DNA of 64,000 bases from an uncultured Gammaproteobacteria bacterium (GCA_964416445.1 CAYQEE010000003.1:1946-65945); one strand, 5' to 3'; shown: positions 22,930-45,645, counted from the first letter of the stretch. The notes: a model not told the origin generated them from the sequence alone. Program-made: numbers and translations.

Positions 22930-23505
22930 ATGGGTGAAAAAGTTTTATTTCCAGTTTATCCTACTCCAAAATACACAAGCGAACAACGTGATAAATTGGG
23001 ACAGATGTATGGTAATCATCTCATGTTACTCTCAATGCTTGAGAGTCCAAAAAGCCCAGAAGTTGAAGCGGAAATTCTCTTCGGCTATGAGTGTTTTTTA
23101 GATTGGGTTTTTTCAAAAGACGGAAGAAGAATATCATCAAAAAGAATAGATTTGCCTAATTATATTGAACTGAAAAATAACATAGATCCTTTGGAAATTG
23201 ATGCACTGAAAAGTACTGTAATAAATATTTTTCGTGAAGGAATTCCTGTTCCCCTAATTAATAAAGGCCAATACTGGAGCTATCCGAAAATTGAACAAAA
23301 TAGAATTCTTATTCAACCTGAAGAAGCTGCAATTGTAACACACAAATTTGGATTGAGTGACGGTATAAGAAGAACATGGAAAGATGTTGCTATGCTAATG
23401 GGAGTTGATAGTTCATCTGTGACACAACGTGAAAGCAGAATCCGGGGAAAATTTCGGCATCCTAGTCATATGATGTTATTACGACCATTCTATCATTTAA
23501 GATAA
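22930..23505 (+). CDS. Sigma-70 region 4-like HTH domain protein, with no recognisable region 2
   Basis: The C-terminal ILIQPEEAAIVTHKFGLSDGIRRTWKDVAMLMGVDSSSVTQRESRIRGKFRH matches the sigma-70 region 4 consensus (L..RE..VL..RFGL......TL.EVG...GV.R.ERIRQIE..AL.KLR). The N-terminal 120 aa lack the region-2 signature. Confidence 0.5.
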   Translation: MGEKVLFPVYPTPKYTSEQRDKLGQMYGNHLMLLSMLESPKSPEVEAEILFGYECFLDWVFSKDGRRISSKRIDLPNYIELKNNIDPLEIDALKSTVINIFREGIPVPLINKGQYWSYPKIEQNRILIQPEEAAIVTHKFGLSDGIRRTWKDVAMLMGVDSSSVTQRESRIRGKFRHPSHMMLLRPFYHLR

Positions 23506-23766: not shown

Positions 23767-25275
23767 TTACTTGTTAATAATTTTGCTATAACTTCCTTGA
23801 ATTAGTGATACGAAAAAGTTTCTAATTGCATTGTTAATATTTAATATAAAAGAAAAAACTGTTGTTGGAGTCTTTGTAGTTCCGGTAAGAATTTTAGCAA
23901 AATTGAACTCCATACTTGCTGGATTATATGTTGCTTCTTGGTAAAGCAAATTATTATTTTTTGGAGTTTGTGATGGTACTGTTCCTGAAGGAAATATTGA
24001 GGGTGTTGGCTGTGATTGGTTAAAAGGATTTATATTTTGCAAGAATGAAAATGCATTTTGTATTGGGTTTGTACTTTGCGTTGGTGTTGCTGATGGAAAG
24101 TTATCTTGTGATGCATTAGTGGGACTTGGTGTATTAAAAGAATTTGTTGGAACTGGAGTATTACCAGATCCTGGAGGTTGAGTTGGCTGAGGCGTTGCAG
24201 TTGGCATTTGAGTAGGACTTGGATTATTTGTTATTGATGATGTCGGGGTAATATATCCCCAGCATGCCATATTACAATTTGACGTTGTATAGTATCCTTG
24301 AGGGTCATATTGGCACGCGCCTGTATTACCATTGCAACTATAATGATTTACGATAGGTCCACTTGTTGGCGTTGGTGTAGGGTTTTGGGTGAGACTTCCC
24401 CAACAAGCATTGTTGCAATTTGATGTTGTATAGTAACCTTGAGGCTCTGGGATACATTGTCCCGTATTACCGTCGCATGTATACCTTGCAGAAGTTGGTG
24501 TTGGAACGACAGTTAAGTCATAGGCGATAAAAGAAGAATATTTTACCACACTTCCATTTTGTGTAGAAACACCAATACCTGCATAACCTGACGAAAAATT
24601 ATCATCACTTGTTTGTAACATCCAATTATTCGGTTCGGAATCACTTGTTCTCCATACTTTTGCACTCAGGTTAATTCCAACTACCTGAAACTTAATAGTA
24701 TAATTGTTGTTTGAGTAAGCTTTAAAGGAAGTTTGAGTAAGAACTGTATTATTGTCACTAAGCATGCGACGAATGAGAAAGTTAGAACCATCAAAGTATG
24801 CTTTGTACCAGTTATCATTATCTTTATAACGAAGTAATACGCCAATATCAGTATTTGTGAAAGATCCGACTTGGACGGTAGCAATGACCTGGCTATCGGT
24901 TAAATTTGAAGGACCAAGTACTCCATTTGATATTCCACTTCCATTGGATATCTGTCCAAAGTTGTTTGTAATTTGATAAATGCTATTTACTGAAGCGTCA
25001 GCTCCCCAAGTATTCTGACCATCTGAGGCACGCCCCCAGTGAGTTTGATTCGATCGTTGGAATGTGTCCTTAGCAACAATAGTATTCGTTTGAGAGGCAA
25101 GGACAGTTGAATAATCAGCTGATTTGTATTTTTTACCATTAGAAAAATAGGAGAAAATAAAAATAGATAAATAAACAATAGTTAAAATGCAGCAACCAAT
25201 TAAGATACTTGCTTTAAATGATTTTGCATTTTTTTTCTTAATATGTTTAGATTGTTTTCTTTTTTTAGTCATCAC
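23767..25275 (-). CDS. Secreted or surface protein: signal-anchor, jelly-roll-like domain, 2x Cys-rich 4-Cys modules, S/T/P/Q linker, and a conserved C-terminal tail domain
   Basis: Basic N-terminus plus a TM; the repeats YTCDGNTGQCIPEPQGYYTTSNCNNACWG and YSCNGNTGACQYDPQGYYTTSNCNMACWG; a long P/T/S/Q low-complexity stretch; the C-terminus NNLLYQEATYNP...NFAKIL...INNAIRNFFVSLIQGSYSKIINK is homologous to the C-terminus of the 35958..37448 protein. Confidence 0.5.
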   Translation of the reverse strand: MMTKKRKQSKHIKKKNAKSFKASILIGCCILTIVYLSIFIFSYFSNGKKYKSADYSTVLASQTNTIVAKDTFQRSNQTHWGRASDGQNTWGADASVNSIYQITNNFGQISNGSGISNGVLGPSNLTDSQVIATVQVGSFTNTDIGVLLRYKDNDNWYKAYFDGSNFLIRRMLSDNNTVLTQTSFKAYSNNNYTIKFQVVGINLSAKVWRTSDSEPNNWMLQTSDDNFSSGYAGIGVSTQNGSVVKYSSFIAYDLTVVPTPTSARYTCDGNTGQCIPEPQGYYTTSNCNNACWGSLTQNPTPTPTSGPIVNHYSCNGNTGACQYDPQGYYTTSNCNMACWGYITPTSSITNNPSPTQMPTATPQPTQPPGSGNTPVPTNSFNTPSPTNASQDNFPSATPTQSTNPIQNAFSFLQNINPFNQSQPTPSIFPSGTVPSQTPKNNNLLYQEATYNPASMEFNFAKILTGTTKTPTTVFSFILNINNAIRNFFVSLIQGSYSKIINK

Positions 25276-25326
25276 TACTATCAGAATATATGAATTGAGA
25301 CTAAACAGTCAATATTAATAACAAAT

Positions 25327-26127
25327 TTGCGTATTGAGAATAAAATACTTGTTATAATGCAACTAAAAGAATTAAGTATGAAATGGATTCCTGCTCGGTC
25401 GTTTATCCATAAAAATATATCTAAAGTTAAAATGTCCCTGTCTTATTCTTTAATTATTTTCTTTATTGGAGGTATAATTATATTTCATACGAAAATAGCA
25501 TTAGCGAATGGAGTTAATGAAAACAAAATACTTGCTATATTTACTATTATCACTACCTCATCAGAAGCAACAGGTAATCCTCAGTTTGAACCTACGCCTA
25601 CTCAAATAGTTCCCACTGCTACTCCATTTGCAATTCAAACATCTCAGCAAATTGCACTAGGAATATCACCCAATAAGCAACCTTCTGATTCAAATAGTAC
25701 AATGTGGTCAGTAATAAAGAAAGATAGTGAAACTTCACTTGAAGTATTACCCGCGGATTCACGCATGTCAACAGTAGATGAATTGAATGAGGCAATGAAT
25801 CAGTATAGGATTGGTCATCAATTGCCAACGCTTTATCCGGATCCAACATTATGTTCTATTGCAAAGACTCGAGCAAATCAGCAATTAGCATTAGGCCATT
25901 TAGACGGACATGCAGGGTTTCCAGCTCTTGCAAATCAACAACAGAAATATAGTACGATGGCCGAAGTTCTATTTGGTGGAGTCGAACCAATCTATGGAGT
26001 ACATATAGTTGAGTGGGGTTGGGATAGATCGCTTACAGGACATAAAGAAACTATTTCTGATCCAAAATGGCATAGCGGTTGCGGAGGAATTGCTGGTTAT
26101 TTTGCAGTATTTGAATTTGGAAATTAG
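25327..26127 (+). CDS. CAP/SCP/PR-1-like domain secreted protein
   Basis: C-terminal blocks ELNEAMNQYR...GH..ETISDPKWHSGCGG...YFAVFEF resemble CAP-domain signatures. It has a TM or signal segment; the likely true start is the Met near 25432. Confidence 0.55.
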   Translation: MRIENKILVIMQLKELSMKWIPARSFIHKNISKVKMSLSYSLIIFFIGGIIIFHTKIALANGVNENKILAIFTIITTSSEATGNPQFEPTPTQIVPTATPFAIQTSQQIALGISPNKQPSDSNSTMWSVIKKDSETSLEVLPADSRMSTVDELNEAMNQYRIGHQLPTLYPDPTLCSIAKTRANQQLALGHLDGHAGFPALANQQQKYSTMAEVLFGGVEPIYGVHIVEWGWDRSLTGHKETISDPKWHSGCGGIAGYFAVFEFGN

Positions 26128-26150
26128 AAAAACGGCAATCGAACAAACGA

Positions 26151-27164
26151 TTAGGCTTTACCTACAACATTTTGTGGACGCCCATCTAAAAATCCTCTTA
26201 TATTAACTACTGTTGTTTGTAATATTTGTTGCATTGATTCATCACTGTTAAATGCATTATGAGGAGTAACGATTACATCTTCTCTATTTAACAAAATATG
26301 ATTCATAAGTTGGCTTTTTAAATCGCAACTCTCTAGAAATTTACTTGCAAGCAATTCTCGTTCTTCTCTCATATTACATTCTTCTTCAAGAACATCAAGT
26401 CCTGCACCACGGAGGATTCCTTTCTCAAGTGCTTCAAGTACTGCCTGTGTCTCAACAATAGGTCCTCGGGCAGTATTAATTAAGATGCTTCCCTTCTTCA
26501 TATTTTGAATATTCTGCCGGTTAATTAAGTGCTTTGTGTCATTCGTGTAAGGTAAATGAATTGATACCACATCTGAAGTTGAAAGCAGTTCATCTATTTG
26601 AACAAATCGAACTCCCAGTTTTTCAAGATCAGGAATTGGATGACGATTAAATGCAATCACTTTCATTCCGAATCCTAATCCTATCTTACAGACAATTTCT
26701 CCTATATTGCCTGTTCCTAGGACTCCTAATGTTTTATTATATAATTCCATACCTTGTAATCCAGTAATCTCGAAGTTTCCTTTTTTTGTTCTTTCTACCG
26801 AAGTAAGTATTTTTCGAGATAATGTTAACAAAAGAGCAAATGCGTGTTCTGCAATTGTATGAACACCATATGCTGGTACGTTACTTATGAAAATATTTTT
26901 TTCTTTACAGTAGTTAATATCAATATGATCATATCCTGTCGAACGAGTAGCAATAAATTGTAAGTTAGGAAATTTTTCTAAGATATCTTTTGTTAGCTGA
27001 GAGTATGCAAAGGTAGAAAGAATAGTAGCGTCATAAACATTTGAATCGTAAGTTGAGAAGGAATCGAGCGTTTGTAAGTTAAATATTATAGTATTATCAG
27101 TAAAATTTTTTTTGAAATAATTCTCTTCCCAATCTTCTATTTCAAAAAATACAATTTTCACCAT
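26151..27164 (-). CDS. D-isomer-specific 2-hydroxyacid dehydrogenase family protein, NAD-binding
   Basis: Rossmann GxGxxG (GVLGTGNIGEIV), an Asp at the end of the second beta strand (IAFNRHP), and catalytic R/E/H positions (TARG, HNAF). Confidence 0.8.
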   Translation of the reverse strand: MVKIVFFEIEDWEENYFKKNFTDNTIIFNLQTLDSFSTYDSNVYDATILSTFAYSQLTKDILEKFPNLQFIATRSTGYDHIDINYCKEKNIFISNVPAYGVHTIAEHAFALLLTLSRKILTSVERTKKGNFEITGLQGMELYNKTLGVLGTGNIGEIVCKIGLGFGMKVIAFNRHPIPDLEKLGVRFVQIDELLSTSDVVSIHLPYTNDTKHLINRQNIQNMKKGSILINTARGPIVETQAVLEALEKGILRGAGLDVLEEECNMREERELLASKFLESCDLKSQLMNHILLNREDVIVTPHNAFNSDESMQQILQTTVVNIRGFLDGRPQNVVGKA

Positions 27165-27191
27165 ATTTTATCTTTCTAAGTATATCAGTTA

Positions 27192-28013
27192 TTGATTTTA
27201 AGTGGTAGTTTGGTTTATGGGATATTTTTTAAAGTTATTTTCAGGGTTATTGTATATAATACCGATAAATGTATGAAAGAAACACGTCTTATCATGGGAA
27301 TGCCTATAACTGTTGAACTCGTTGATTCTTTTGCAAAACCAATAAATATCCAAAAAGTCTTTGATTATTTTACGTATATTGATAATAAATTTAGTACCTA
27401 TAAGTCAGCAAGTGAAATCTCGCAAATAAATGCTGGTATCTTGAAAAAAAAAGATTTCAGTGAGGATATGAAAACGGTTTTCTTGCTGAGTGAACAGACG
27501 AAAAAAGAAACTAATGGCTATTTTAATATAGAACATAAAGGGAAATATGATCCTTCTGGACTCGTAAAAGGTTGGGCGATTTATCAAGCGTATAATATGC
27601 TCTGTAAAGATGGGTTGAAAAATTTCTTTATTGAAGCTGGTGGTGATGTACAAGTATCCGGGAAAAATGGTCAAGGAAAACAATGGACTATTGGGATACG
27701 AAATCCTTTTAATAGTGAACAGATAGTTAAAGTAATAGCACTCGATAATAAAGGTGTTGCTACGTCAGGAACCTATATTCGAGGTCAACATATTTATGAT
27801 CCTTATCACAAAGATACGATATTAAAAGAGATAGTGAGTTTAACGGTAGTTGGTCCTAATATATTTGAAGCTGATAGATTTGCTACCGCGGCTTTCGCGA
27901 TGGGCTCAAAAGGAATTCTTTTTATACAAAGTATTCCAGGATTTGATGCCTACATGATCAATAAAGATGGTATCGCTACCTATACAAAAAATTTTACTAA
28001 GTATACTATGTAA
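27192..28013 (+). CDS. apbE: ApbE-like FAD:protein FMN transferase
   Basis: IMGMPITVEL, GLVKGWAI and VATSGTYIRGQHIYDP blocks typical of the ApbE family; the N-terminus is probably shorter than the ORF. Confidence 0.7.
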   Translation: MILSGSLVYGIFFKVIFRVIVYNTDKCMKETRLIMGMPITVELVDSFAKPINIQKVFDYFTYIDNKFSTYKSASEISQINAGILKKKDFSEDMKTVFLLSEQTKKETNGYFNIEHKGKYDPSGLVKGWAIYQAYNMLCKDGLKNFFIEAGGDVQVSGKNGQGKQWTIGIRNPFNSEQIVKVIALDNKGVATSGTYIRGQHIYDPYHKDTILKEIVSLTVVGPNIFEADRFATAAFAMGSKGILFIQSIPGFDAYMINKDGIATYTKNFTKYTM

Positions 28014-28019
28014 AGTTGC

Positions 28020-28048
28020 TTGACAAATGCAATTATATCGCATTATAC
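28020..28048 (+). promoter_or_regulatory. Putative sigma70-like promoter of zur (TTGACA, 17-18 nt spacer, TTATAC/TATACA), with an ATTGCATAT-containing operator-like element just downstream
   Basis: The -35 and -10 hexamers are at near-ideal spacing. The motif caagtgtATTGCATAT at 28063-28083 recurs upstream of znuA. Confidence 0.35.
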
Positions 28049-28107
28049 AGTATAATATAACTACTTGCAAGTGTATTGCATATGTGGTAATATGATATAC
28101 TAGGTTT

Positions 28108-28551
28108 ATGGTATCTTCAAAACAAAATCATGATTGCAAAGCAGAATTAAACGAAGCAAATCTTCGTGCAACCCCAGCTCGAGTTGCCGTGATGCAGTTT
28201 CTAGAATCAGCCAATACTCCTATTGATGTTGAAACAATTATTGATCATCTTAATAAACAAAAGATAGATACAGATCCTGCAACAGTATTTCGGATAATGA
28301 ACTTACTTACGGTAAAAGGAATTACAAAGCAAATTTCTTTTAATGAAGGGAAATTTCGATACGAACTGATGAATAAAGCAGATCATCATCATCTTATTTG
28401 TGAGAGTTGTGGGAACATTGAAGATATTTCAGATTGTAATATTCCCTCACTTGAAAAAGACATTCATCAGAAGAAGAAATTCTTAGTTAAAAGTCATTCG
28501 TTAGAATTCTTTGGTTTGTGCAAAAATTGTCAAAAACAAGTTACCTCTTGA
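28108..28551 (+). CDS. zur: Fur-family metalloregulator, likely the zinc uptake regulator Zur
   Basis: ATPARVAVMQFL...HHHLICESCG...CKNC. It lies immediately upstream of znuACB. Confidence 0.75.
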   Translation: MVSSKQNHDCKAELNEANLRATPARVAVMQFLESANTPIDVETIIDHLNKQKIDTDPATVFRIMNLLTVKGITKQISFNEGKFRYELMNKADHHHLICESCGNIEDISDCNIPSLEKDIHQKKKFLVKSHSLEFFGLCKNCQKQVTS

Positions 28552-28557
28552 CAAGTG

Positions 28558-28586
28558 CAAATCGATTGCATATACTAATGCAAGTT
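28558..28586 (+). promoter_or_regulatory. Putative znuA promoter (TTGACA, 17 nt, TATACT), with a near-palindromic GCAAATCGATTGCATAT operator in the spacer (candidate Zur box)
   Basis: The hexamers are at 28558-28563 and 28581-28586. The spacer is an imperfect palindrome around ATCGAT and shares ATTGCATAT with the zur upstream region. Confidence 0.4.
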
Positions 28587-28599
28587 AATTGCAAATCTG

Positions 28600-29523
28600 A
28601 TGAATAAAAAATTATCATTCTATTTTGCTGGGTTTATAGTCCTTCTTGTTATAGCGGGAATTTCGTGGGAAGTTGCTAAAAACAATAAATCAATGAATTC
28701 TTTATCAATGCAGTCGCAAACAATTCATGTTGTAGCAGCTGAAAACTTTTATGGAGATATCGTACAGCAATTAGGTGGAAGTCATGTTCAAGTACTGAGT
28801 ATTCTTTCCGACCCAAATACAGATCCACATGAATATGAGTCAAGTGTACAAGATAGCATTGCAGTGGCAAAAGCAAATATCGTCATTGAAAATGGGTTGG
28901 ACTATGACACATGGATGGATAAGTTACTGTCTGCGTCACCTAATAATAAACGTATTCTTTTAATTGGTGGAAAATTAGCTACCCATCATCTACCAGATAA
29001 TCCACATGTATGGTATGGTATTGATAATATCCAAGCAATTGCGGGAAAAATTGCAGAATCCTTAAAGAACGTTGACCCAACAGATGCAAAAGAATTTGAT
29101 CAAAATCTTAATAAGTTTGATACCTCCCTGCAGTCAATTACTCAAAAAATAAATGATATTAAATCTCAATACAATGGAACACCTGTTGCGTTAACTGAGA
29201 CAATATATCTATATCAAACGCAACCGGAAGGACTCAATGTCTTAACACCATTCTCTTTTGAGAAAGCAATTGCTGAAGGGAACGACCCATCAGCAGATGA
29301 TGTTGCAAAGGCAACTGATGAGATAACCAAAAAACAAGTAAAAATACTTATTTATAATGTGCAAACAGTAACACCAGTAACGACAAATTTACAAAATGAA
29401 GCAAAGCAACAAAATATACCAGTAGTCCCGGTATCTGAAACGATGCCTCAGAGCAAACATTATCAAAATTGGATGTTAGATCAAGTCACTAATTTACAAA
29501 ATGCTCTTCATAGTTCAAAATAA
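28600..29523 (+). CDS. znuA: Zinc/manganese ABC transporter substrate-binding protein (cluster 9, ZnuA-like)
   Basis: Signal anchor; metal-binding His/Asp pattern (DPHEYE, HHLPDNPHVW); operon context with zur. Confidence 0.75.
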   Translation: MNKKLSFYFAGFIVLLVIAGISWEVAKNNKSMNSLSMQSQTIHVVAAENFYGDIVQQLGGSHVQVLSILSDPNTDPHEYESSVQDSIAVAKANIVIENGLDYDTWMDKLLSASPNNKRILLIGGKLATHHLPDNPHVWYGIDNIQAIAGKIAESLKNVDPTDAKEFDQNLNKFDTSLQSITQKINDIKSQYNGTPVALTETIYLYQTQPEGLNVLTPFSFEKAIAEGNDPSADDVAKATDEITKKQVKILIYNVQTVTPVTTNLQNEAKQQNIPVVPVSETMPQSKHYQNWMLDQVTNLQNALHSSK

Positions 29524-29546
29524 GAAAAGAAAGTAAAATTTTCCTT

Positions 29547-30317
29547 GTGAACCAAAAACCAATTATTGAATTACAAAATGTACAACTCTCATTAGGGGAA
29601 CGAACAATCCTTCATGATATTACTTTAACAATTTACGAAGGTGAGTTTATTGCGGTGCTTGGGCCAAATGGTGCTGGCAAAAGTACTCTTTTGAAATTAC
29701 TTTTAGGACTGTATAAAGCAACTTCAGGAAAAATAGTAATTCTTGGAAGACTACCAAGACGTGGAAATAATGAAATTGGCTATGCGCCACAGCATAGAAC
29801 ACTTGAAGCCGACTTGGCTCTTCGTGCTCGAGATGTTGTCGGGTTTGGTCTTGATGGCAATAAATGGGGTATCGGTTTACCGGATAAGAAGCGTGATAAG
29901 AAAATTGAACAAGCGTTATTAGAAGTAGATATGTTGCATCTTGCTGACATGCCTGTAGGAAAATTATCAGGAGGTGAACAGCAAAGATTACTTATTGCCC
30001 AAGCCCTACTTACCTACCCTAAGATATTATTCTTAGATGAACCATTATCCAATTTAGATATTACACATGCACGAGAAATTGTTTCTTTAATAACAAGAAT
30101 TTCTAAAAGTCGAAATATTACTGTGTTGCTTGTCACCCATGATGTCAATCCTGTTCACTCTGTAATTGATCGAGTTATCTATATGGCAAATTGTCATAGT
30201 GCTATTGGGAAACCAGAAGAAATTATTACCAGTGAAGAATTATCAAAGTTGTATGGATCTCCTGTGGAAGTAGTGAATGCTAATGGAAGAGTTTTTGTAA
30301 TTGGTGAGGAAAATTGA
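29547..30317 (+). CDS. znuC: Zinc ABC transporter ATP-binding protein
   Basis: Walker A GPNGAGKST, signature LSGGEQQR, Walker B LFLDEP. Confidence 0.8.
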   Translation: MNQKPIIELQNVQLSLGERTILHDITLTIYEGEFIAVLGPNGAGKSTLLKLLLGLYKATSGKIVILGRLPRRGNNEIGYAPQHRTLEADLALRARDVVGFGLDGNKWGIGLPDKKRDKKIEQALLEVDMLHLADMPVGKLSGGEQQRLLIAQALLTYPKILFLDEPLSNLDITHAREIVSLITRISKSRNITVLLVTHDVNPVHSVIDRVIYMANCHSAIGKPEEIITSEELSKLYGSPVEVVNANGRVFVIGEEN

Positions 30318-31161
30318 GTTTTCTATGTTCTCTGTCTTACAATATTCATTTATTCAAAATGCGTTTCTTGCTTCAGCATGCGTTGCGGTCGTTTCCGCGA
30401 TAATTGGTTACTTTCTTCTTATTAGAGGATTAACATTTGCAGGTCATGCATTTTCTCATATCGGATTTGCAGGAGCTGCCGGAGCGGTATGGCTCGGTAT
30501 AAATCCTCTTTTTGGATTACTTATCTTTACCTCTCTTGCAGGAGTAGGTATTGGATTATTAGGAAAAGAACTACGAGAAAGGGATATAACAATTGGGATA
30601 ATATTTACCTTGGCTCTTGCATTTGGTGTGTTATTTCTCTTTTTATATCACGGCTATGCGGAACAAGCATATAGCATTCTCTTTGGAACTATTCTTGGAA
30701 TTAGTTCAACTAATGTCATTATCACCGCACTCTTTAGTCTTGTAACTATTATTGTAATGAGTTTCCTTTTTAGACCAATATTATTTAGCTCATTTGATCC
30801 AGAAGTAGCTGAAGCGAGAGGAGTTCCCGTGAAATTATTAGGAGTCATTTTTCTTATTCTTGTCGCGATAACTGTTTCAATCTCAGTGCAAGTAGTAGGA
30901 GTACTTCTTATTTTTACCTTACTGGTAGGACCTGCTGCAACCGCAATGAGGTTAGTAAAAAGTCCTTTTGCTGCAATAAGTGTTGCAATTGTGCTAGGGC
31001 TTTTATATAGCTGGCTTGGAATTTTTCTTGCAGCAAATACTAATTTACCTGTAACCTTTTTTATTTCATCCCTTTCGTTTGGCGTTTATCTACCGGTAAG
31101 GATATTTTCTCCCACATGGATGAAAAGAAAAAATTTACCAATACCCAAACATCATGATTGA
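30301..31161 (+). CDS. znuB: Zinc ABC transporter permease (ABC-3 family)
   Basis: Polytopic ZnuB/MntB-like permease; overlaps znuC by 17 nt. Confidence 0.75.
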   Translation: MVRKIEFSMFSVLQYSFIQNAFLASACVAVVSAIIGYFLLIRGLTFAGHAFSHIGFAGAAGAVWLGINPLFGLLIFTSLAGVGIGLLGKELRERDITIGIIFTLALAFGVLFLFLYHGYAEQAYSILFGTILGISSTNVIITALFSLVTIIVMSFLFRPILFSSFDPEVAEARGVPVKLLGVIFLILVAITVSISVQVVGVLLIFTLLVGPAATAMRLVKSPFAAISVAIVLGLLYSWLGIFLAANTNLPVTFFISSLSFGVYLPVRIFSPTWMKRKNLPIPKHHD

Positions 31162-31996
31162 ATTATTGCAGCATCAATTTATACAAAATGCATTTCTTGC
31201 GGGGACTATTATTGCTATTGTATCAGCGAGTATTGGCTATTTTGTTGTTTTACGTGCGCAAGCATTTGCCAGTCATGCGCTCGCTCATATTGGATTTGCT
31301 GGTGCAACAGGAGCAGCGCTCCTTGGTGTTAGTTCATTAGTTGGTACAGTTATTTTTACACTAATAGCTGCATTAGGTATGGGAGCTTTAGGTAATAAAA
31401 TTCGTGGCAGAGATGTTGAAATTGGTATGATACTTTCGTTTGCTCTTGGACTAGGTGTGTTATTTCTCAAACTTTATACAGTAAATGCGACAGAAGCTGT
31501 TGGTATTTTATTTGGTTCTATTTTGAGCGTTACGCAATCAGACTTAGTACTCAGTATTGTTTCAGGTCTTCTTACCCTTAGTTTTTTAGTATTTTTATTT
31601 CGTCCACTCCTCTTTTCATCAGTTGATCCAGAAGTTGCTGAGGCAAGAGGAGTTCCTGTACAAGCTATTTCGATAATTTTCATGATCTTACTAGCACTAA
31701 CTGTTGCAGAAGCGGTTCTGGTTGTTGGAATTCTTCTGGTTTTTGCACTTCTTGTAGCCCCAGCAGCAACTGCACAGCATTTTACTAACAGGCCATTGAT
31801 TACCATAGTTACCTCAGTTCTCATGGGATTATTTTTTACATGGGGAGGATTATTTTTAGCTTTATTCTTTCACGGACCAGTAAGTTTCTATATTGCAAGT
31901 TTGGCATCTGTTTCTTATTTGCTAGCTGTTCCACTTATGCATGTTATTAAACCGCATCTTTATATTGCTATACCTCACCCAACAAAAGAACTGTAA
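31154..31996 (+). CDS. Second ABC-3 family permease (ZnuB paralog)
   Basis: Clear similarity to the preceding permease (FIQNAFLA..., DPEVAEARGVPV); overlaps it by 8 nt. Confidence 0.75.
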   Translation: MIELLQHQFIQNAFLAGTIIAIVSASIGYFVVLRAQAFASHALAHIGFAGATGAALLGVSSLVGTVIFTLIAALGMGALGNKIRGRDVEIGMILSFALGLGVLFLKLYTVNATEAVGILFGSILSVTQSDLVLSIVSGLLTLSFLVFLFRPLLFSSVDPEVAEARGVPVQAISIIFMILLALTVAEAVLVVGILLVFALLVAPAATAQHFTNRPLITIVTSVLMGLFFTWGGLFLALFFHGPVSFYIASLASVSYLLAVPLMHVIKPHLYIAIPHPTKEL

Positions 31997-32004
31997 TAAC
32001 AATA

Positions 32005-32760
32005 TTAATAATAAATATATGGATTATCAGGTTGCATAGTTGGAAAGATTGAGTCAGTAACAATATAAAGAAAATCTCTATTATCATTTTTCTTTATTGC
32101 GAAATGACCTGTTATCATTACCCATTGTTTATCGTTAAAGTTCTTGTTAGAAGAAATGATAATGGGATATCCAAATGGTTGCGCATCAACAGTACAACAG
32201 GTGATCAATAATTCAGCTAAGTATTCTTGCGGAGGATTAATATTTTTAGGATGAAATATATATCCAGTTAAAATGACTTTTTTCCCTTTTTCGAAAGAAT
32301 AATTCGTGTCGATTTCATTGATATGGAACCAGTTGTCAAAAGTATATTTTGTCGTATCAGAACCAAGTTTACTGGTAACTGTTTTTATATTTCCCGAAGA
32401 AAGATGGAAATTTCCACTAATTGTTTGTGCCGAGGCATCAGTACTTAATGGTTTTGGTTCCATGAAAAATCCGAAACATAAAGCAGCCACTAAAGGGATA
32501 AAGGATACTATTGAAATGAGTGTATAGTTTTTTTGATCAGCAATTTTTATTCCTTTGATTTGTTTTCTCATGAATCTTAATTCTTGAATGAGTAAAAGAA
32601 TAATTCCTATCAAGCCAATAACAACGCAAATAGTACTGGTAATACCAGTAAGGATTATGTATTTTGTATTAATATAGTAGTTGAGTTTTCCTTCTACCGT
32701 TAATTCAAGACCATACCAGCCAAAGAGAAATACTATAAAGAACTGATAATATTTTTTCAT
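32005..32760 (-). CDS. DUF1980/TIGR03943-like membrane protein (putative partner of the DUF318 permease)
   Basis: Two N-terminal TM helices, then a soluble domain with a CC motif (LITCCTVDAQP); 4-bp overlap with the upstream DUF318 gene, the usual gene pairing. Confidence 0.4.
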   Translation of the reverse strand: MKKYYQFFIVFLFGWYGLELTVEGKLNYYINTKYIILTGITSTICVVIGLIGIILLLIQELRFMRKQIKGIKIADQKNYTLISIVSFIPLVAALCFGFFMEPKPLSTDASAQTISGNFHLSSGNIKTVTSKLGSDTTKYTFDNWFHINEIDTNYSFEKGKKVILTGYIFHPKNINPPQEYLAELLITCCTVDAQPFGYPIIISSNKNFNDKQWVMITGHFAIKKNDNRDFLYIVTDSIFPTMQPDNPYIYY

Positions 32761-33641
32761 AAATGGACAAACTGGTTAACTAGCAAGCCTATACAAACAC
32801 TGACAAGCGCAATAAATAATGAGATACTGAGTATTACTTTATTCTTATACATCGATCTCATAAGAATAATCATTTTTATATCAACCAAAGGACCAAAAAT
32901 AAGAAAAGATAGGATTGATCCAAGAGTAAATCCATTGATATATGACAATGCAAAGAATGCATCGACAGTTGAACATATAGAGATAATAAACCCTAATAAT
33001 AGCATTATAAAAAATGAAAGCATAACATTATGCCCAATAGCAAGAAGTGTTTCTTTAGGAATGAAAGTTTGTATAAGTGCTGCTATTGCAGCTCCTATAC
33101 ATAAAAGTTTTGCGATATAGATAAATTCTGACTGAAAGATTTCCAAGGAATTATAGAATGAACGTTTTGTTGTGTGAATATTACAAACATCCATATAAAA
33201 AGACTTTGTTAATAAATTATTTTGATCTTTTTGATAACTCAAAAAGATGCCAATAATATTAGCGATAAAAAAACCACTGAGAACACGTATGAAGGCTAAC
33301 TGTGGAGTAAGAGAAAATGCTTGATATGTTGTAAAGAAGGTTATGGGATTCAAAAGAGGTGCAGCTAATAAGAATGTTATTGCTTGTGAAGGAGAAAGCC
33401 CTTGAAATATAAGCCTTCTTGCAACAGGGATATTTCCACATTGACAAACAGGTATTACAATACCGACTAAAGATAGAATGATATGTGATATATATCTATT
33501 TTTTGGGAGCATTTTTAGTAGAAAATTTTCAGGTACAAAAAGCGCTATTAATACTGATATCAAAACGCCAATGGTAACATAGGGTAACGATTCCACAATA
33601 ATACTAAGAAATAATGTGACAAAATCTTGAATATGGTTCAT
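32757..33641 (-). CDS. YraQ/DUF318-family predicted permease
   Basis: Polytopic, with the conserved CxCG motif (VCQCGNIPVARRL) and internal repeat architecture. Confidence 0.55.
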   Translation of the reverse strand: MNHIQDFVTLFLSIIVESLPYVTIGVLISVLIALFVPENFLLKMLPKNRYISHIILSLVGIVIPVCQCGNIPVARRLIFQGLSPSQAITFLLAAPLLNPITFFTTYQAFSLTPQLAFIRVLSGFFIANIIGIFLSYQKDQNNLLTKSFYMDVCNIHTTKRSFYNSLEIFQSEFIYIAKLLCIGAAIAALIQTFIPKETLLAIGHNVMLSFFIMLLLGFIISICSTVDAFFALSYINGFTLGSILSFLIFGPLVDIKMIILMRSMYKNKVILSISLFIALVSVCIGLLVNQFVHL

Positions 33642-33701
33642 TACAAATTTAATTTTCGCAATAACACATTAACTACAAAAGCGTCTGTATTTAATATAAA
33701 T

Positions 33702-34847
33702 TTAGGGAAAAGAATCATTCTTCTTAACATGTAAAACGGTAAACGTTCCAAGAGCAGTTGTTATAGGGACAGCGAGAATTAATGCACAACTGCCTACTAT
33801 CGTTTTAACAATCTCTTGCATAGTACTTTCATTATTAAGAATAAGCCATAACGGAAGTTGAACAGGATTAAAAGCGAAAAAAAGGAAGATTATAAGCGAA
33901 GAACCGGCATAAGCAAGTACTAAGGTGTTAATAATTGACGCAATATGTTCTCTTCCAATCGTCATACCTTTAAAGAAAAAGTACGAAAAGGATTGCCTAG
34001 GATTTTCTCTCGCCAAAGTAAAAATTGTAATAGCTTGTGTCGTTGTCACATCATTAAGGGCACCGAGAGTCCCGATTAAAATGCTACCAAGTAAAAGGCC
34101 TTGAGGATTTATTGTATGAGTTGTTGCGAGTTGGAGTGAATAAATATTTTCATTCCCAAGTCCAAGAAGAAACGTAAAATGAACTGAAAATAGTGCAAGC
34201 ATTGCTGCAATAAGTAAAGATAATGCAGTACTAATCACTGCTACGCAAGTTTTAAGTGATATTCCGTGTGCAATAAATGTTGTAAAGAATAGAATAATAA
34301 TACATCCAACTGTACTTACGGTAATTGGATCCTGCCCTTTAAGGATATTTGGCATGATATACGTTAAAATAGTAAGGAGACTAATTGATAAACCGATTAA
34401 TGCACCAATCCCCTTTTTTCCAGCTATAATGATAATGAGGAGAATGAAAAATCCAAGTATCCACCAAAGGTTTGTTAATCGATAAGGCTCATAAAGTGTA
34501 TAAAGTTTTTTCCCTGAAAAATCAGGTTTACTATCAATAACTACTATGTCGCCTGCTTGAATTTTTTCATTGATACCAAAAGTAGCATCATTAGAATAAC
34601 TTACGACGACTTTTTTGCCTTTTTCTTTTCCTTCAAGGAATGCTACTTTTAAACTTTCGTTGTAATTTTTAATATGATCATATGTTTGTATACCTTGAGA
34701 TAGCACTTGAATTACTTGAGCACGGGCGTAAGATTCGTGGTAATCTAACTCATCGGGTGGATCTGCAAAAACTTTATGAATAGGAAAAAATGAAATGGTG
34801 AGTATGCAAATGGAGCATAAACTGAAAATCAAAATAAACTTTCTCAC
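33702..34847 (-). CDS. YibE/F-family membrane protein
   Basis: Signal peptide plus an N-terminal soluble domain, followed by a multi-TM domain with glycine-rich helices typical of YibE/F. Confidence 0.5.
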   Translation of the reverse strand: MRKFILIFSLCSICILTISFFPIHKVFADPPDELDYHESYARAQVIQVLSQGIQTYDHIKNYNESLKVAFLEGKEKGKKVVVSYSNDATFGINEKIQAGDIVVIDSKPDFSGKKLYTLYEPYRLTNLWWILGFFILLIIIIAGKKGIGALIGLSISLLTILTYIMPNILKGQDPITVSTVGCIIILFFTTFIAHGISLKTCVAVISTALSLLIAAMLALFSVHFTFLLGLGNENIYSLQLATTHTINPQGLLLGSILIGTLGALNDVTTTQAITIFTLARENPRQSFSYFFFKGMTIGREHIASIINTLVLAYAGSSLIIFLFFAFNPVQLPLWLILNNESTMQEIVKTIVGSCALILAVPITTALGTFTVLHVKKNDSFP

Positions 34848-35006
34848 ACGCTTATTATGACATATCTATTTAAGAATATTCGATAATAACAATGACAACT
34901 TCATTAGTGCTTTGATATTGAACCAGTTGCAAAACTAATCATTCAATCACTTATTAACAGAATATCGTTTAAGGTAATTGGAATTGGGGGTTTTATAAAA
35001 GTGGAA

Positions 35007-35873
35007 TTATTGTGACCTTCCTAATAAGCCTCGTAAAAAGCTATTGAAAAAAATCAAAACAGAATTTCCTAGATCAGAAGATGATTGACTGTTTGTGACT
35101 GGAGAATTTGTAACCGCTGGGCACCATCCTCCGGGAGGTAACGGCAATTTACATGCTGGATTTTGGCTTAAACAAGTAGGTCGAGGAAGACAATGTGGAG
35201 GTGTTGGATACGCGCTAGGAGTTCCAGATGGTTCGCAAGAAGAAGGCAATCTACATAATATTCCAAGTCTTGGGTTGCAACTGGGAACGGGTGGACAAGA
35301 TGGATTTGGATAGCCAGAAGGAATACCTGAAGGAACAGGAGGCGTTCCACTTGGGCAGACTAATACAGTTTTGCATGGTTGACAATTCGTACTTCCTGGA
35401 TAACAAATTGCCTGTTGAGTTATGCCACAGAGATGTTCATAGAAGCAACCTTGAGGTGGAGTTGGATATGGAACAGAAGGCGTAGGTGATGTTGGCAGAC
35501 ACCACCCTCCATTTGGTTCAGGAATAAGACATCGAGGTGTAGCATCGAGGCAAGGTGGGCGTGGAATACAAGTTAAAGAAGGTACTGGAGAAGGATATGG
35601 AATTGATGGTGCAGGATAACACATTGCACCTGGAGGACAATGCCAGTTTGCAGAGTTTGTGGTATTCGTTGAGATAGGAGAACCATAGGTTGATCCTGTA
35701 AAATAGGAAACGCCTTCAACTTGTTGATCGTTTTGTTGAGTAGGTAAAACTGCATTATTTGCATATATTGCAAGAGGAAGTGCAAAAATAATTATTACAA
35801 GAATACCTACTTTTGTAGATATTTTTTTAGAGAGAAGATCTTTTGAATTTTTTACCTTCACTTTCCTTTTCAT
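35007..35873 (-). CDS. Secreted Cys- and Pro-rich repeat protein with a C-terminal tail resembling the shared tail domain
   Basis: Signal anchor; the repeats CIPRPPCLDATPRCLIPEPNGGWC and CLPRPTCLSQNPACKLPLPPGGWC; C-terminus NSVLIFFNSFLRGLLGRSQ, compared with NAIRNFFVSLIQGSY in the 23767..25275 protein. Confidence 0.45.
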   Translation of the reverse strand: MKRKVKVKNSKDLLSKKISTKVGILVIIIFALPLAIYANNAVLPTQQNDQQVEGVSYFTGSTYGSPISTNTTNSANWHCPPGAMCYPAPSIPYPSPVPSLTCIPRPPCLDATPRCLIPEPNGGWCLPTSPTPSVPYPTPPQGCFYEHLCGITQQAICYPGSTNCQPCKTVLVCPSGTPPVPSGIPSGYPNPSCPPVPSCNPRLGILCRLPSSCEPSGTPSAYPTPPHCLPRPTCLSQNPACKLPLPPGGWCPAVTNSPVTNSQSSSDLGNSVLIFFNSFLRGLLGRSQ

Positions 35874-35957
35874 ATAATAGGTCTTACTATCAAGGTATTA
35901 GATAGAAATTTCTTTGTCAAGATGGTTCTAAAATAATTACCGTAGTCAACATATGTA

Positions 35958-37448
35958 TTGACGGAAATTGGACACTATTATATTCTGAGTTTACTAGTGA
36001 AAAAAAGGCAACATACACGTAAAAAAAAGACACGTAAAAAATTACATAACTTACGTTTTTGGATGATTTTCCTTCTGGGTGTAATTTTTATTATTTCTAT
36101 CGTTTTGTATAAACAGTTTTTATTAAGGTCTAACAAAATTTTAGGAGTGTCAAGTAGCTGTCCTACTAATCAACCAGAATGTTTGTTTTTAAGCCCCTAC
36201 CCTATTTTCGATTCATCAACATATATTCAATATAATGCGGCTGTAAATGGAGTAAATTGGAATCATACAACTACTGCTCAAGCGAATCGAGTATTAATAG
36301 TAACTGTTTCTTATGGTAATAATCAACAATCTTCTAATCAAGTTACCTATGGTGGAACTAATTTAAAGAAATTATCTTCACAGATGTGTTCTGCAATATC
36401 AGGATCAACGTGTAACGATGAAATGTGGTATCTTATCAATCCATCAACTGGTACTTTTCCCGTAGCTCTTTCAATTAATGGAGGACCAGCTGAAATTGTC
36501 GCAGCAGCATCAACATATTATAATGTTGATCAAACTAATCCGGTTGGATCTATTCTCGATTCCTCAGGGAAATCCAGCACGGCATTTGTTACAGTTAGTG
36601 GTACGACTCCGTATCAACTTATTGTTGATGCATTTGCTGCTGGTGGGATTGGAGGACCCTATTTACCTGATTCAAGCCAAACTCAGATATATGAGGCGAA
36701 TACCTATAATGCAGGGGGAGGAAGTTTTAAATTTGCAAACGCGAATAATACTACGATGCTCTGGTCTATTAACTCGTCTCAAGGGGGAGATAACTGGGCA
36801 CTTATCGCAGTTTCCCTTAATGTTCCGAGTGCTGAATTACCGCTTGCAATTACCTATGCACCCACTCCTACAAATAGCAATAACGTAGTTCAGCAACCAG
36901 TCAATTTGCAAACATCTCCTTCAACATTAACGCAATCACCTACTTCAGGACAGATTCGCACACAATCTCAGATACCAACACTGATACAAGTACCTATATT
37001 ACTGAATCAAACATCTCCGTTGAATCAAGTTCAGACACAAACATCACAAGGTAATGGAATAGTTAATCCTACTCAAACGGTTAGTAATCAAGGTACGTCT
37101 TTGCAGACGAGTGATGTCTCAATATCTCCAATAAGTGTTCCAGGAGCGCATAATAGTATTTCTCAAACAGTTTCTCCTACAACGGCAATCAATTTTTTGT
37201 CTCAATCTAATCCAACTACGTCACTACTTCCTACCCAGAGTCAAAATCAAAATAGTTCGGCTAAAAGTAATTTACTTTATCATGAAGCTGCTTATGTGCC
37301 TTTTGGCATTGATCTTAATTTTGCGCAACCTAATCATCAACATTCACCGTCCATAACGGTAAGCTCAGTAGTTGTAGTAATTAATAATAGTATTAAATCG
37401 ATTTTCTTGAATATTTTTAACAATATAAGAAAAATTATCAATAGATAA
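35958..37448 (+). CDS. Secreted protein: signal-anchor, globular domain, long S/T/Q/P linker, and the conserved C-terminal tail domain
   Basis: Basic N-terminus plus a TM. The C-terminus SNLLYHEAAYVPFGIDLNFAQ...VVVVINNSIKSIFLNIFNNIRKIINR aligns with the C-terminus of the 23767..25275 protein (LLY[QH]EA[TA]Y.P...NFA...INN[AS]I...F...KIIN[KR]). Confidence 0.45.
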   Translation: MTEIGHYYILSLLVKKRQHTRKKKTRKKLHNLRFWMIFLLGVIFIISIVLYKQFLLRSNKILGVSSSCPTNQPECLFLSPYPIFDSSTYIQYNAAVNGVNWNHTTTAQANRVLIVTVSYGNNQQSSNQVTYGGTNLKKLSSQMCSAISGSTCNDEMWYLINPSTGTFPVALSINGGPAEIVAAASTYYNVDQTNPVGSILDSSGKSSTAFVTVSGTTPYQLIVDAFAAGGIGGPYLPDSSQTQIYEANTYNAGGGSFKFANANNTTMLWSINSSQGGDNWALIAVSLNVPSAELPLAITYAPTPTNSNNVVQQPVNLQTSPSTLTQSPTSGQIRTQSQIPTLIQVPILLNQTSPLNQVQTQTSQGNGIVNPTQTVSNQGTSLQTSDVSISPISVPGAHNSISQTVSPTTAINFLSQSNPTTSLLPTQSQNQNSSAKSNLLYHEAAYVPFGIDLNFAQPNHQHSPSITVSSVVVVINNSIKSIFLNIFNNIRKIINR

Positions 37449-38802: not shown

Positions 38803-40185
38803 ATGCAGTATAGTAGAAAAAGAAACACAAAAAATTTTACGCATATGATTGGCAGGTACAGAAAAACATTGTCGTTTATAACGATACTTCTTATTGCGTT
38901 AGCAATACCAGTAACAATACTTCTGCAACAACAAAGAGCTACAATAGAGCAAAAAGCAGCGGGACCAATGTGTAACTCAACTGGAGTAACAAAAAACACA
39001 AACGGAACATATACGTTTGCGCGTCTTGCAATTGATTCTCAAGGAAATATAGTCGATGCGAATAATCCAACTTGCATTATCCAGCTTTTAGGAGTGAATA
39101 TGGGTCCATTATTTCTTCAGGACGCAGGAGGGACAACTAATCTCACTGGCCTTGAGCAATATATGCAGTTTTTCTCACAGAATTTGCATAGCAACGTGGT
39201 ACGGGTGAATTTTAACTCGTACTGGTATAATACCGATGTCCGGGTGCCAAAAGCGCAGATGAATTTTCAACAATGGCTGCAAACGTACGTAAAACTGGAA
39301 GAACAAGCAGGACATTATGTTATCTTGGATGTAGGCACACAATTTCAAAATCCACCATGCGGGAATGATCCGACAACCAATCCGCCAACCAATGTCACCC
39401 AATGTCCTTATCAAAATCAGGCGTCAAGAAATGTTCCTCCTAACCCAACAGAACAAACAACCTATGAACCCGTTCCTCTTCAGGCAATCGGGAGTTTAGC
39501 AAAACTGTATGCCAATGATCCTGCTGTTATTTTTGATATATGGAATGAGCCATCGCATAGTACAGCTCCCATTTCCGAACAGATATTTATGCAGGATACA
39601 AATGACAGAATTAATGCCGTGAGAACATATGCTCCACAGATGCTGGTGATGGTCTATGAAAGAGCACTCACAGATATTATGACTAATGGATTTGCTGATT
39701 TTACGCAAGGGAATATCATTATTGACTTTCATACCTATGGAGCAAACTGGACAAGAACAACGGATGTACCAATCGTTCAAACAGCTCACACACATAAATA
39801 TGCAGTTATTGAAGGAGAATGGGGAGCAAAAGCTCCAGGAACTCCTCCGCCTTCAGAAATGATTCCATTCTTACAAACCAATGATGTGGAATCAACGTAC
39901 TTCTCAGCAGGGGACCTAATCACAGGAAACACTCAAAACGCGGGAAGTCTGAACTCGGTTGGACAGGCAGTCGCTGCTGGGTACCTAAATATTTTTGGAG
40001 CACCCCAACCTACGAGTAATACTAATCCTTCCAATACTCCGACTCCATCACTCTCAGTCTCAATAACACTACATCCTTCCAATAGTATTTCACCTACTGC
40101 AACAATAACAAAACCCGGAGATCATCATCCTACGGAAGTTCAAAACAAAGATAACCACCATTCTGGTGGAGAAGAAAAAAAATAA
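38803..40185 (+). CDS. Secreted glycoside hydrolase family 5-like protein (cellulase/mannanase superfamily) with a C-terminal S/T/P tail
   Basis: Signal anchor (the likely start is the Met near 38845). The acid/base motif is FDIWNEPSH and the nucleophile region VIEGEWGAKA. The N-terminal module is paralogous to the N-terminus of the 42625..45645 protein. Confidence 0.6.
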   Translation: MQYSRKRNTKNFTHMIGRYRKTLSFITILLIALAIPVTILLQQQRATIEQKAAGPMCNSTGVTKNTNGTYTFARLAIDSQGNIVDANNPTCIIQLLGVNMGPLFLQDAGGTTNLTGLEQYMQFFSQNLHSNVVRVNFNSYWYNTDVRVPKAQMNFQQWLQTYVKLEEQAGHYVILDVGTQFQNPPCGNDPTTNPPTNVTQCPYQNQASRNVPPNPTEQTTYEPVPLQAIGSLAKLYANDPAVIFDIWNEPSHSTAPISEQIFMQDTNDRINAVRTYAPQMLVMVYERALTDIMTNGFADFTQGNIIIDFHTYGANWTRTTDVPIVQTAHTHKYAVIEGEWGAKAPGTPPPSEMIPFLQTNDVESTYFSAGDLITGNTQNAGSLNSVGQAVAAGYLNIFGAPQPTSNTNPSNTPTPSLSVSITLHPSNSISPTATITKPGDHHPTEVQNKDNHHSGGEEKK

Positions 40186-45600: not shown

Positions 45601-45645
45601 TATAATTTATTCGTACGGGAATTAAGTATTCAAAATGGTGAATAA
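42625..45645 (+). CDS. Large secreted protein with two tandem GH5-like catalytic modules, P/T linkers and a C-terminal type-I dockerin-like domain
   Basis: Module 1 has VFYDVRNEAYP and HGEWGGCYDYTNW; module 2 has VFYDVRNESLQ and HNEWGGCFDYTNW. The N-terminal sub-modules NCNHTGVTKNGNTYSFAKLLVD and SCNHTGVTKNQGGKYTFAKLYVD repeat. The PT-rich linkers include TPTPTVTPTGVSGTPTPTP. The C-terminus carries two dockerin Ca-binding repeats (DLNNDNKLDLLDYNIL, then VDGADYNLFV). Confidence 0.6.
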   Translation: MFIKKYFFLFAIAFVAIAIPLTTLVVQHQQIINQNAAGNNCNHTGVTKNGNTYSFAKLLVDSQGILRDTSGCQIYLLGGQGKGPSPTLQGQLQVNNPSQFTYLPQWNKLVKMNLLRIVLTVQNWTSNPTMPGIGPGGASESYQWFVQNYVHYIEQQGQYVELDLYQQGNAQAELQALPSILQAFQGDTAVFYDVRNEAYPNGDSCTQGMNEDFSFLKKIQDFDPTILKVTYVNCVDQMIADPKTYPFYTASSSAITNLLMDGHMYSGYVGPDPYHPKLTCNEPGNPNDKQGGWPAGLQKDATVTVPFFHANHAGFMHGEWGGCYDYTNWQGYDYHDSMMQSTVCLNIAGLSYYFPSGLFTNQQLNQNGINVNTSYTAIFNNALSCNGGKPSVTSSSSPPPTTTPKPTVSISPTPQASCNHTGVTKNQGGKYTFAKLYVDTHGILRDGTNCEIYLLGVQGKGANPYNSGQYTLHDPSEFSYLDQITQHLTMNELRVPITVTNWNANPFMSNINAYYHTFIQEYVTYIEQQGDYIQFDIYQDATPKEGETAIASLAKTFQTDPAVFYDVRNESLQQGESCTQGLNENYQWLEAIQNVDPTILKGVYVNCLQEMIASPSLYPFYTASSSAITNLFLDGHIYSGYKGSNPFHPNRTCNEPNDPYGKDGGWPALLQRDKSVSVPFLQKNHAALVHNEWGGCFDYTNWQPTGVPGQPTPPPAPDYHDMMIQSVFDNNLAGLSYFYYDDLFLNNQLNQNGINVTNGYTKIFSLVPLSGTPIPTDTPLPTSTVSPTPTVTPTGVSGTPTPTPRTNGTNVFVTVGLHGIGNGGDNENPQSKGTMNPQHPVRDVLITFVSLQGTIAATGTGQITFDSASDSAQGLFTGIVTLATSLNGDYLIRIKSNGFLERQLSSVVSLSQPRMQQKPVIIPPVYLVSGDLNNDNKLDLLDYNILVGCYGVKQNDPASCPAQFQTTPSQVGADLLDDGIQPGDESAVDGADYNLFVRELSIQNGE

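Follow-up and report, generated by a model that had tools for sequence, protein, structure and literature searches.

The stretch of 64,000 nucleotides considered here, called the window throughout, comes from an uncultured Gammaproteobacteria bacterium (GCA_964416445.1, CAYQEE010000003.1:1946-65945) and encodes two secreted proteins, p502 and p496, that end in the same C-terminal tail. p502 begins with a signal-anchor, continues with a β-sandwich of lectin or carbohydrate-binding module (CBM) type and two Cys4 mini-repeats, and reaches its tail module through a stalk rich in Ser, Thr and Pro (S/T/P). In p496 a signal-anchor, an ectodomain and an S/T/Q/N-rich stalk precede the tail module. The tail, a unit of about 100 residues, is a new, unannotated homology region with a very narrow distribution; its anatomy, its relatives and its possible role at the cell surface are the subject of this report (Table 1).

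An earlier note on this DNA had placed three such proteins here, p502, p496 and the Cys/Pro-rich p288, and had ascribed to each an N-terminal anchor and a low-complexity linker. Reading of the open reading frames (ORFs) bears out the positions and the C-terminal sequences of all three. Each also has a strongly hydrophobic N-terminal segment, with a Kyte-Doolittle maximum over 19 residues (KD19) of 2.4-2.6, and a region ahead of the C-terminus in which S, T, P, Q and N account for 50-65% of the residues. For p502, AlphaFold2 (AF2) predicts the N-terminal helix at residues 17-44 (numbering of its entry P0001 in the protein library); its KD19 maximum is 2.59 and its additive membrane insertion energy (dG) is -2.8. 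The p502 stalk comprises about 60 residues, with an STPQN fraction of 0.65 and a fraction of charged residues of only 0.02.

How firm is the relationship between the two tails? A BLASTP comparison joins them with E=3e-7 over the segment from INPFNQ... to ...NFA, a Smith-Waterman alignment yields z=14.6 with none of 1000 shuffles attaining the observed score, and over roughly the last 70 residues 24 of 71 columns are invariant. A profile of these two tails alone, searched against 1.84e9 representative proteins, returned four matches and none further up to E=0.001. They are p502 and p496 themselves (P0001 and P0002) and two more proteins, P0003 (429 aa, E=5e-10) and P0004 (480 aa, E=8e-10). Since these two independent proteins were found by the two-tail profile, the similarity reflects homology and not composition, and the likeness of the p502 and p496 tails that the earlier note had seen is thereby put on solid ground. 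In all four members the match is C-terminal and ends 0-8 residues from the C-terminus, so that the distribution across the 1.84e9 proteins is C-terminal only, as had been anticipated for a tag. The tail had also been called unannotated, which agrees with searches of Pfam, NCBIfam and PDB sequences at E<=10: whole proteins, ectodomains and isolated tails gave nothing above curated thresholds and only weak matches at chance level (CSN8, SelK, DUF6556). NCBIfam contains curated models of many C-terminal sorting signals.

An alignment of the four members resolves the tail into three motifs, A, B and C, with variable spacers between them. The likeness does run through the C-terminal 55 or so residues, as first described, but the conserved unit really spans about 100 residues and includes a further upstream motif that had been missed. 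This motif A has the consensus P[IL]Q..xxF[LF]xxI(P)NPF, also given as NPIQNAxxFLQxI(P)NPF, and is degenerate in p496. A variable spacer of about 20-45 residues, rich in S, T, P and N, leads to the Tyr/Phe/Asn-rich motif B, LLY[QHN]E[AM]xYxPx[SG]xx[FL]N[FY]A, from which 11-12 residues lead to motif C, [FV]xS[FIV]xxxIN[ND][AS]I[RK][NS][FI]Fxx[LI]. Behind motif C follows a non-conserved end of 5-12 residues, reading SKIINK in p502, IRKIINR in p496, TLFPK in P0003 and NNLTKHEH in P0004. The ending KIIN[KR], once taken as a feature of the family, is thus confined to p502 and p496 and absent from P0004 and P0003.

The structure of the module was predicted with AF2 both on its own, with the four-sequence alignment, and within full-length p502, with an alignment of 50 sequences. 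In both runs motif A forms a short helix and motif C a long one, the latter with a predicted local distance difference test score (pLDDT) of 67-82, and motif B comes out as a hairpin or coil of low confidence. The motif helices lie within otherwise disordered sequence, and the module alone shows no compact fold (mean pLDDT 54, predicted TM-score (pTM) 0.21). Taken over stretches of 18 residues, the hydrophobic moment of each of the four members peaks, for the entire chain, within helix A or helix C (0.52-0.68, Fauchere-Pliska scale). For p502 and p496 this maximum lies in helix C, reaching 0.68 in p496 at residues 479-496. The additive insertion dG of helix C on the Hessa scale, a crude measure, ranges from +5.9 to +9.3 kcal/mol over the four members (+7.5 in p502), with KD19 values of 1.0-1.6, whereas the N-terminal segments of these four proteins lie at -2.8 to +1.3 kcal/mol. 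A helical wheel of helix C shows its hydrophobic arc to contain an Asn that is invariant and an Arg/Lys that is conserved. A transmembrane (TM) anchor is ruled out by the hydrophobicity and by these conserved polar and charged residues: helix C is amphipathic and does not span the membrane.

Within the window only p502 and p496 carry the tail; p288, which had been counted as a third carrier, does not belong. The two-member profile does not find it, and neither does the four-member profile, even with every HMMER filter switched off and matches admitted up to E<=20. Against a profile of helix C its tail scores 0.3 bits, a value that 747 of 2000 shuffles attain as well. Pairwise, p288 is marginally similar to p502 only (z=4.4, 2 of 1000 shuffles), while the other three members stay at z<=1.5. 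Its likeness to the family is physico-chemical and consists of a C-terminal amphipathic segment only.

Beyond the four members, the search for relatives was extended in several directions. Word-indexed searches with the tail alignments found none, a weak negative since P0001 and P0002, present in the same collection, were missed as well. Pattern scans also found no tail relatives, be it in 185,579 GTDB species with one genome each, in JGI metagenome contigs, where the full-length alignment of p502 and P0004 was included, or in IMG/VR viral contigs. From the genome of the window the library holds two carriers only, P0001 and P0002, on an NCBI contig of 141,791 bp. As the two-sequence profile detected tails as diverged as that of P0003 (E ~1e-10), a large hidden set of paralogs is unlikely, although very diverged variants could escape such a profile. 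The population of the window itself recurs in the Logan assemblies SRR12266072, SRR12266074 and SRR12266077, while P0003 and P0004 stem from SRR19962015 and ERR14790938, on contigs of only 1.8-2.4 kb. The carriers represent at least three organisms, all of low GC content (34-39%).

The domains in front of the tail differ. The β-sandwich of p502 is predicted with pLDDT >90, and its best Foldseek match is CBM66 (4b1m; E 3e-8, TM-score 0.75 normalised to the target). P0004, 44% identical to p502, is its ortholog and is built alike, apart from having a single Cys repeat. The ectodomain of p496 is unrelated to that of p502 and has no match in the Pfam, NCBIfam and PDB sequence searches; BLASTP likeness between the two proteins is confined to stalk and tail, just as the earlier note had held their N-terminal domains to be unrelated. 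P0003, in turn, combines a Cys-rich region with a different β-rich domain. BLASTP aligns it with p502 over stalk and tail only (E=1e-21) and with p496 at motif B only. The tail is therefore independent of its cargo, standing behind three ectodomains that are unrelated to one another and occurring in at least three organisms, which makes it more than a by-product of whole-protein paralogy.

The pair of orthologs also allows the parts of the protein to be compared. Between p502 and P0004 identity amounts to 63% in motif B, 64% in motif C, 41% in the lectin domain and 20% in the spacer between B and C, and the last nine positions have no residue in common (0/9). That motifs B and C are better kept than a folded lectin domain points to purifying selection on the motifs themselves. 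The best conserved part of p502 is the first Cys4 repeat, at 90% identity. This repeat occurs twice in p502 and once in P0004, has no Pfam match and is modelled by AF2 with a confidence of 55-73.

A further comparison is offered by the lectin domain, which belongs to a family without a Pfam model, with a predicted CBM66/concanavalin-like fold and the conserved start DTFQR..Q..WG.ASDG..W. At least 48 homologs were found (P0006-P0053), all but one of them shorter than 300 residues, and the named ones all come from Ktedonobacteria/Chloroflexota (Dictyobacter, Ktedonobacteraceae), which is the one clue that the analysis gave to the taxonomy of the window. Among 14 homologs that were read, the complete ones consist of an N-terminal TM anchor, a low-complexity stalk and the domain, and none of the 14 extends beyond the domain. 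About 20 residues separate the N-terminal hydrophobic segment from the domain in p502 and P0004, and the stalk of these two lies C-terminal of the domain and leads to the tail.

Table 1 Features of the window: coordinates, strands and the basis of each assignment
Feature	Coordinates	Strand	Description and basis
p502 gene	23767..25275	-	502 aa; ORF; P0001 in the protein library; AF2 model
p502 N-terminal hydrophobic helix	25141..25224	-	Residues 18-45, preceded by a Lys/Arg-rich segment; signal-anchor or uncleaved signal peptide
p502 ectodomain	24517..25083	-	Concanavalin-type lectin/CBM β-sandwich, CBM66-like; AF2 and Foldseek
p502 Cys4 mini-repeats	24256..24486	-	Two copies (C-x6-C-x12-C-x3-CWG), residues 264-293 and 311-340; sequence reading
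p502 stalk	24070..24255	-	S/T/P/Q/N-rich, predicted disordered; pLDDT ~30
p502 tail module, entire unit	23770..24069	-	Residues 403-502; alignment; hmmsearch E 5.9e-45; library search
p502 motif A	24019..24069	-	NPIQNAFSFLQNINPFN; short amphipathic helix, then NPF; alignment, AF2 helix
p502 motif B	23896..23952	-	NLLYQEATYNPASMEFNFA; alignment; low-confidence AF2 β-hairpin
p502 motif C	23797..23862	-	TVFSFILNINNAIRNFFVSLIQ; long amphipathic helix, non-TM; AF2 helix, helical wheel
p502 KIIN[KR] ending	23770..23784	-	
p496 gene	35958..37448	+	496 aa
p496 region of ambiguous start	35958..36062	+	
p496 tail module	37179..37445	+	Residues 408-496; hmmsearch E 1.2e-38; alignment
p496 motif A	37179..37217	+	Degenerate
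p496 motif B	37269..37325	+	
p496 motif C	37356..37421	+	
p496 KIIN[KR] ending	37431..37445	+	
p288 gene	35007..35873	-	288 aa; Cys/Pro-rich secreted protein; outside the tail family
Sortase	1388..1978	-	Nearest to class F; Pfam Sortase E 4.6e-21; 22 kb from p502
PMT_2/GT-C glycosyltransferase	19382..20791	-	Protein O-mannosyltransferase-like
PMT_2/GT-C glycosyltransferase	20837..22306	-	Protein O-mannosyltransferase-like
Sigma-70 region 4 protein	22930..23505	+	191 aa; NCBIfam E ~1e-7, no Pfam match
CAP-domain protein	25327..26127	+	Secreted; Pfam CAP 21.5 bits, cutoff 21.1
GH5 cellulase-family protein	38803..40185	+	
GH5 cellulase-family protein	42625..45645	+	

Some details of these genes deserve mention. 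Where p496 begins is ambiguous: the longest ORF, from a TTG codon, gives 496 residues, the Logan gene call (P0005) 483 and the NCBI-derived version (P0002) 461, with starts 13 and 35 codons later. The start of P0002 falls within the hydrophobic segment and would drop the basic n-region. p288 contains an internal repeat, C[IL]PRPxCL...P.C.[IL]P.P.GGWC, that matches no family; its gene is divergent from p496 at a distance of 84 bp, and this pairing is kept in two Logan contigs (L004, L005).

The genes near and between p502 and p496 encode no protease or transpeptidase. They comprise the two PMT_2 genes, genes for the sigma-70 region 4 protein, the CAP-domain protein, a 2-hydroxyacid dehydrogenase and ApbE, Fur/Zur with ZnuABC, DUF1980 with an ArsP permease, and YibE/F. 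The PMT_2 genes are adjacent to each other and about 1.5 kb from p502. Around them are encoded several secreted proteins with long S/T/P stalks, namely p502, the CAP protein, p288, p496 and the two glycoside hydrolase family 5 (GH5) proteins, and the PMT_2 pair are candidates for O-glycosylating these neighbouring stalks. Both GH5 proteins have N-terminal hydrophobic segments and lack the tail module, and in the first of them at least the C-terminal region is rich in S, T and P. The CAP protein has an N-terminal anchor and a T/P-rich linker, and its gene is divergent from p502. The 191-residue protein matches the C-terminal region 4 of sigma-70 only, and its gene is convergent with p502.

What could such a tail be for? 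The reading that we favour, if only tentatively, is that of a lineage-restricted, non-covalent module for surface retention or docking, about 100 residues long and placed at the far end of a flexible and probably glycosylated stalk. The protein would be exported via its N-terminal signal or anchor. Helix C, aided by helix A, would then lie on the outer face of the cytoplasmic membrane or pack against a partner protein of the membrane or surface. The C-terminal end of the stalk would thereby be fixed and the cargo domain, the CBM66-like lectin in p502 and others in p496 and P0003, kept at the cell surface. Anchoring or docking, and likewise the absence of cleavage, are inferred here, and the sequence would be compatible with a cleaved tail and with an intact one alike.

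Several observations are consistent with this proposal. They include the terminal position of the module behind three unrelated architectures, the conservation of motifs B and C above that of the lectin fold, the amphipathic and, for helix C, non-TM character of the two helices, and the precedent of PBP5. In the Ktedonobacterial homologs the stalk joins the domain to its anchor, and if it always does so, the tail of p502 and P0004 would stand in the anchor position. The N-terminus of P0003 looks by eye like a short cleavable signal peptide, with the cut between ...ALALSTSAA and LL; were it cleaved, the tail would be the only means of retention. The invariant Asn and the Arg/Lys in the hydrophobic arc of helix C, together with motifs A and B, point beyond generic lipid binding alone to a protein partner or to self-association. 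The ending KIIN[KR], common to the paralogs of one genome only, fits tails that co-evolve with a genome-specific partner, and may reflect the co-evolution of both with a single one.

Other points weigh against a retention or docking module. The N-terminal segments of p502, p496 and P0004 resemble stable TM anchors (dG -0.5 to -2.8), a second anchor may hence be unneeded, and with retention through these segments the tail would be the distal and not the proximal end of the stalk. The AF2 models of the tail are of low confidence, and in p496 helix C opens with a Val-rich run (VSSVVVVI) that would be compatible with a β-strand as well. Generic in-plane anchors usually conserve amphipathicity rather than sequence, and the sequence-level conservation of the tail also fits recognition by an enzyme. 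With four members only, conservation statistics are thin.

Among known devices, a PBP5-type anchor appears to be the closest functional analogue, followed by the dockerins on account of their architecture. An uncleaved C-terminal amphipathic helix of 18 residues keeps PBP5, once exported, at the outer face of the inner membrane (PMC2909392). As in PBP5/DacA, PBP6 and PBP4 of E. coli, an N-terminal export signal is combined with a C-terminal amphipathic helix that does not span the membrane, and the moment and mean hydrophobicity of helix C are comparable. However, the single helix of PBP5, about 18 residues long, joins the folded domain directly, whereas the tail has three motifs in about 100 residues behind a disordered stalk and conserves specific polar residues; there is no sequence homology between them. 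Dockerins and the C-terminal domains of the type IX secretion system (T9SS) are likewise C-terminal modules, of 70-100 residues, that follow an S/T/P linker on varied secreted carbohydrate-active or carbohydrate-binding cargo, which they direct to a surface assembly. Unlike these, the tail has no match in Pfam or NCBIfam and no Ca-binding repeats, and AF2 yields isolated helices instead of a dockerin fold or a T9SS β-sandwich. The organism, moreover, appears to be sortase-bearing and monoderm-like, and so is not a T9SS host.

The earlier note had read the tail as having the architecture of LPXTG, PEP-CTERM and GlyGly-CTERM signals. Signals of this tripartite class consist of a motif, directly followed by a TM helix and then by a basic cluster, and stand in a many-to-one relation to their sorting enzyme (PMC3237569). 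Compared with the LPXTG/sortase, PEP-CTERM/exosortase, GlyGly-CTERM/rhombosortase, PGF-CTERM/archaeosortase and MYXO-CTERM/myxosortase systems, the tail is similar in its strictly C-terminal position on proteins with hydrophobic N-terminal segments, in the low-complexity region upstream, in carriers that are homologous in stalk and tail only, and in its restriction to a lineage. The architecture itself, however, does not hold up. There is no TM helix, motif B lies 11-12 residues from helix C instead of abutting it, and a basic cluster is present only in p502 (SKIINK) and p496 (IRKIINR), not in P0003 (TLFPK) or P0004 (TKHEH). The tail also measures about 100 residues against 25-35, and only two carriers are known per genome. 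What stands of the proposed sorting or anchoring tag is a terminal, cargo-independent module in what would be the anchor position, while a construction of the sortase, exosortase or rhombosortase type falls away. The sortase reported for the window is indeed encoded there; it scores 131 bits against the NCBIfam class F model, under the cutoff of 166. Its link to the tail was rejected, given that none of the four tails has an LPXTG-like motif (L[PA]xT[GASN]), as the earlier note had already remarked for the motif it described. Nor do the tails contain an LAXTG, PEP, GG or Cys signature, or match the LPXTG-anchor models of NCBIfam and Pfam at E<=10.

A processed signal of a new type is a different matter. 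Here an enzyme would read motif B and/or helix C, cut off the C-terminal portion and link the protein to the wall, a lipid or another surface structure. This would accord with the strictly C-terminal, cargo-independent placement, with a stalk that recalls the wall-spanning regions of sortase substrates, with short motifs conserved above the folded domain, with paralogs of one genome that end alike, and with the presence of a sortase in the genome; as no existing model matches, such a signal would have to be new. We nevertheless consider it quite improbable. Two of the three features that define the tripartite class, TM helix and basic cluster, fail (PMC3237569), and motif B is set off from the helix, with a third motif another 30-45 residues upstream. 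The tails lack every signature named above, and for the sole class F sortase that has been characterised the reported sorting signal is LPXTG (PMC8225981). Two library carriers from the genome of the window contrast with the usual many-to-one systems, and no rhomboid, exosortase or CPBP-type protease is found among the scanned window proteins. Very doubtful, too, is the broader idea that the tail is the recognition tag of an undescribed surface-sorting or docking system, in which a dedicated enzyme or receptor reads motif B and helix C and which is confined to a little-sampled lineage of low GC content, probably a relative of Chloroflexota/Ktedonobacteria. A helix, a linear motif and an amphipathic helix without a TM segment would then differ from every known C-terminal sorting signal.

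Two other explanations dispense with sorting. In one, the tail is a module for self-association, its helices C and A forming a coiled coil or helical bundle, or its Asn- and aromatic-rich segments a β-zipper, so as to make lectins multivalent or to build a shared surface complex. Helix C does have hydrophobic residues at a/d-like positions (3, 7, 10, 14, 17 and 21, spanning three heptads), and a conserved Asn and Arg/Lys within a hydrophobic arc are typical of specific helix-helix contacts. The carbohydrate-binding cargo of p502 would profit from multivalency, and the order of domain, linker and C-terminal module is that of dockerin-bearing proteins, with two GH5 cellulases encoded nearby. Yet neither of these enzymes carries the tail, no partner of cohesin-like or scaffold type came to light, Ca-binding dockerin repeats are absent, as is a Pfam dockerin match, and the low AF2 pTM comes from a monomer model, which cannot speak to oligomerisation. 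On balance self-association seems unlikely. The other explanation, which we likewise regard as unlikely, sees a lineage-specific C-terminal region that arose by duplication and domain shuffling and either serves another purpose, such as contact with a ligand or host surface from the distal stalk end, or plays no part in targeting. The family is tiny, with four proteins in 1.84e9 and none in the scans of GTDB species, JGI metagenome contigs and viral contigs, and p502, p496 and P0004 could be retained by their N-terminal TM helices alone, which would leave the tail as the outward end of the stalk. Against this stand the motifs, which are better conserved between orthologs than the folded domain, and the stalk, which in the Ktedonobacterial homologs connects domain and anchor; a module kept behind three unrelated ectodomains, moreover, argues for a common selected function.

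In practical terms, two things without annotation come out of the analysis, the new homology region of the tail and, apart from it, a CBM66-like lectin family of the Ktedonobacteria, and both could be modelled for annotation. The significance is limited by the number of carriers, four in all. If the tail does serve in anchoring or docking, an amphipathic, non-TM type would be added to the known C-terminal retention devices. It would then also show how a barely sampled, sortase-bearing lineage of low GC content presents lectins and further domains at its surface with no recourse to LPXTG.

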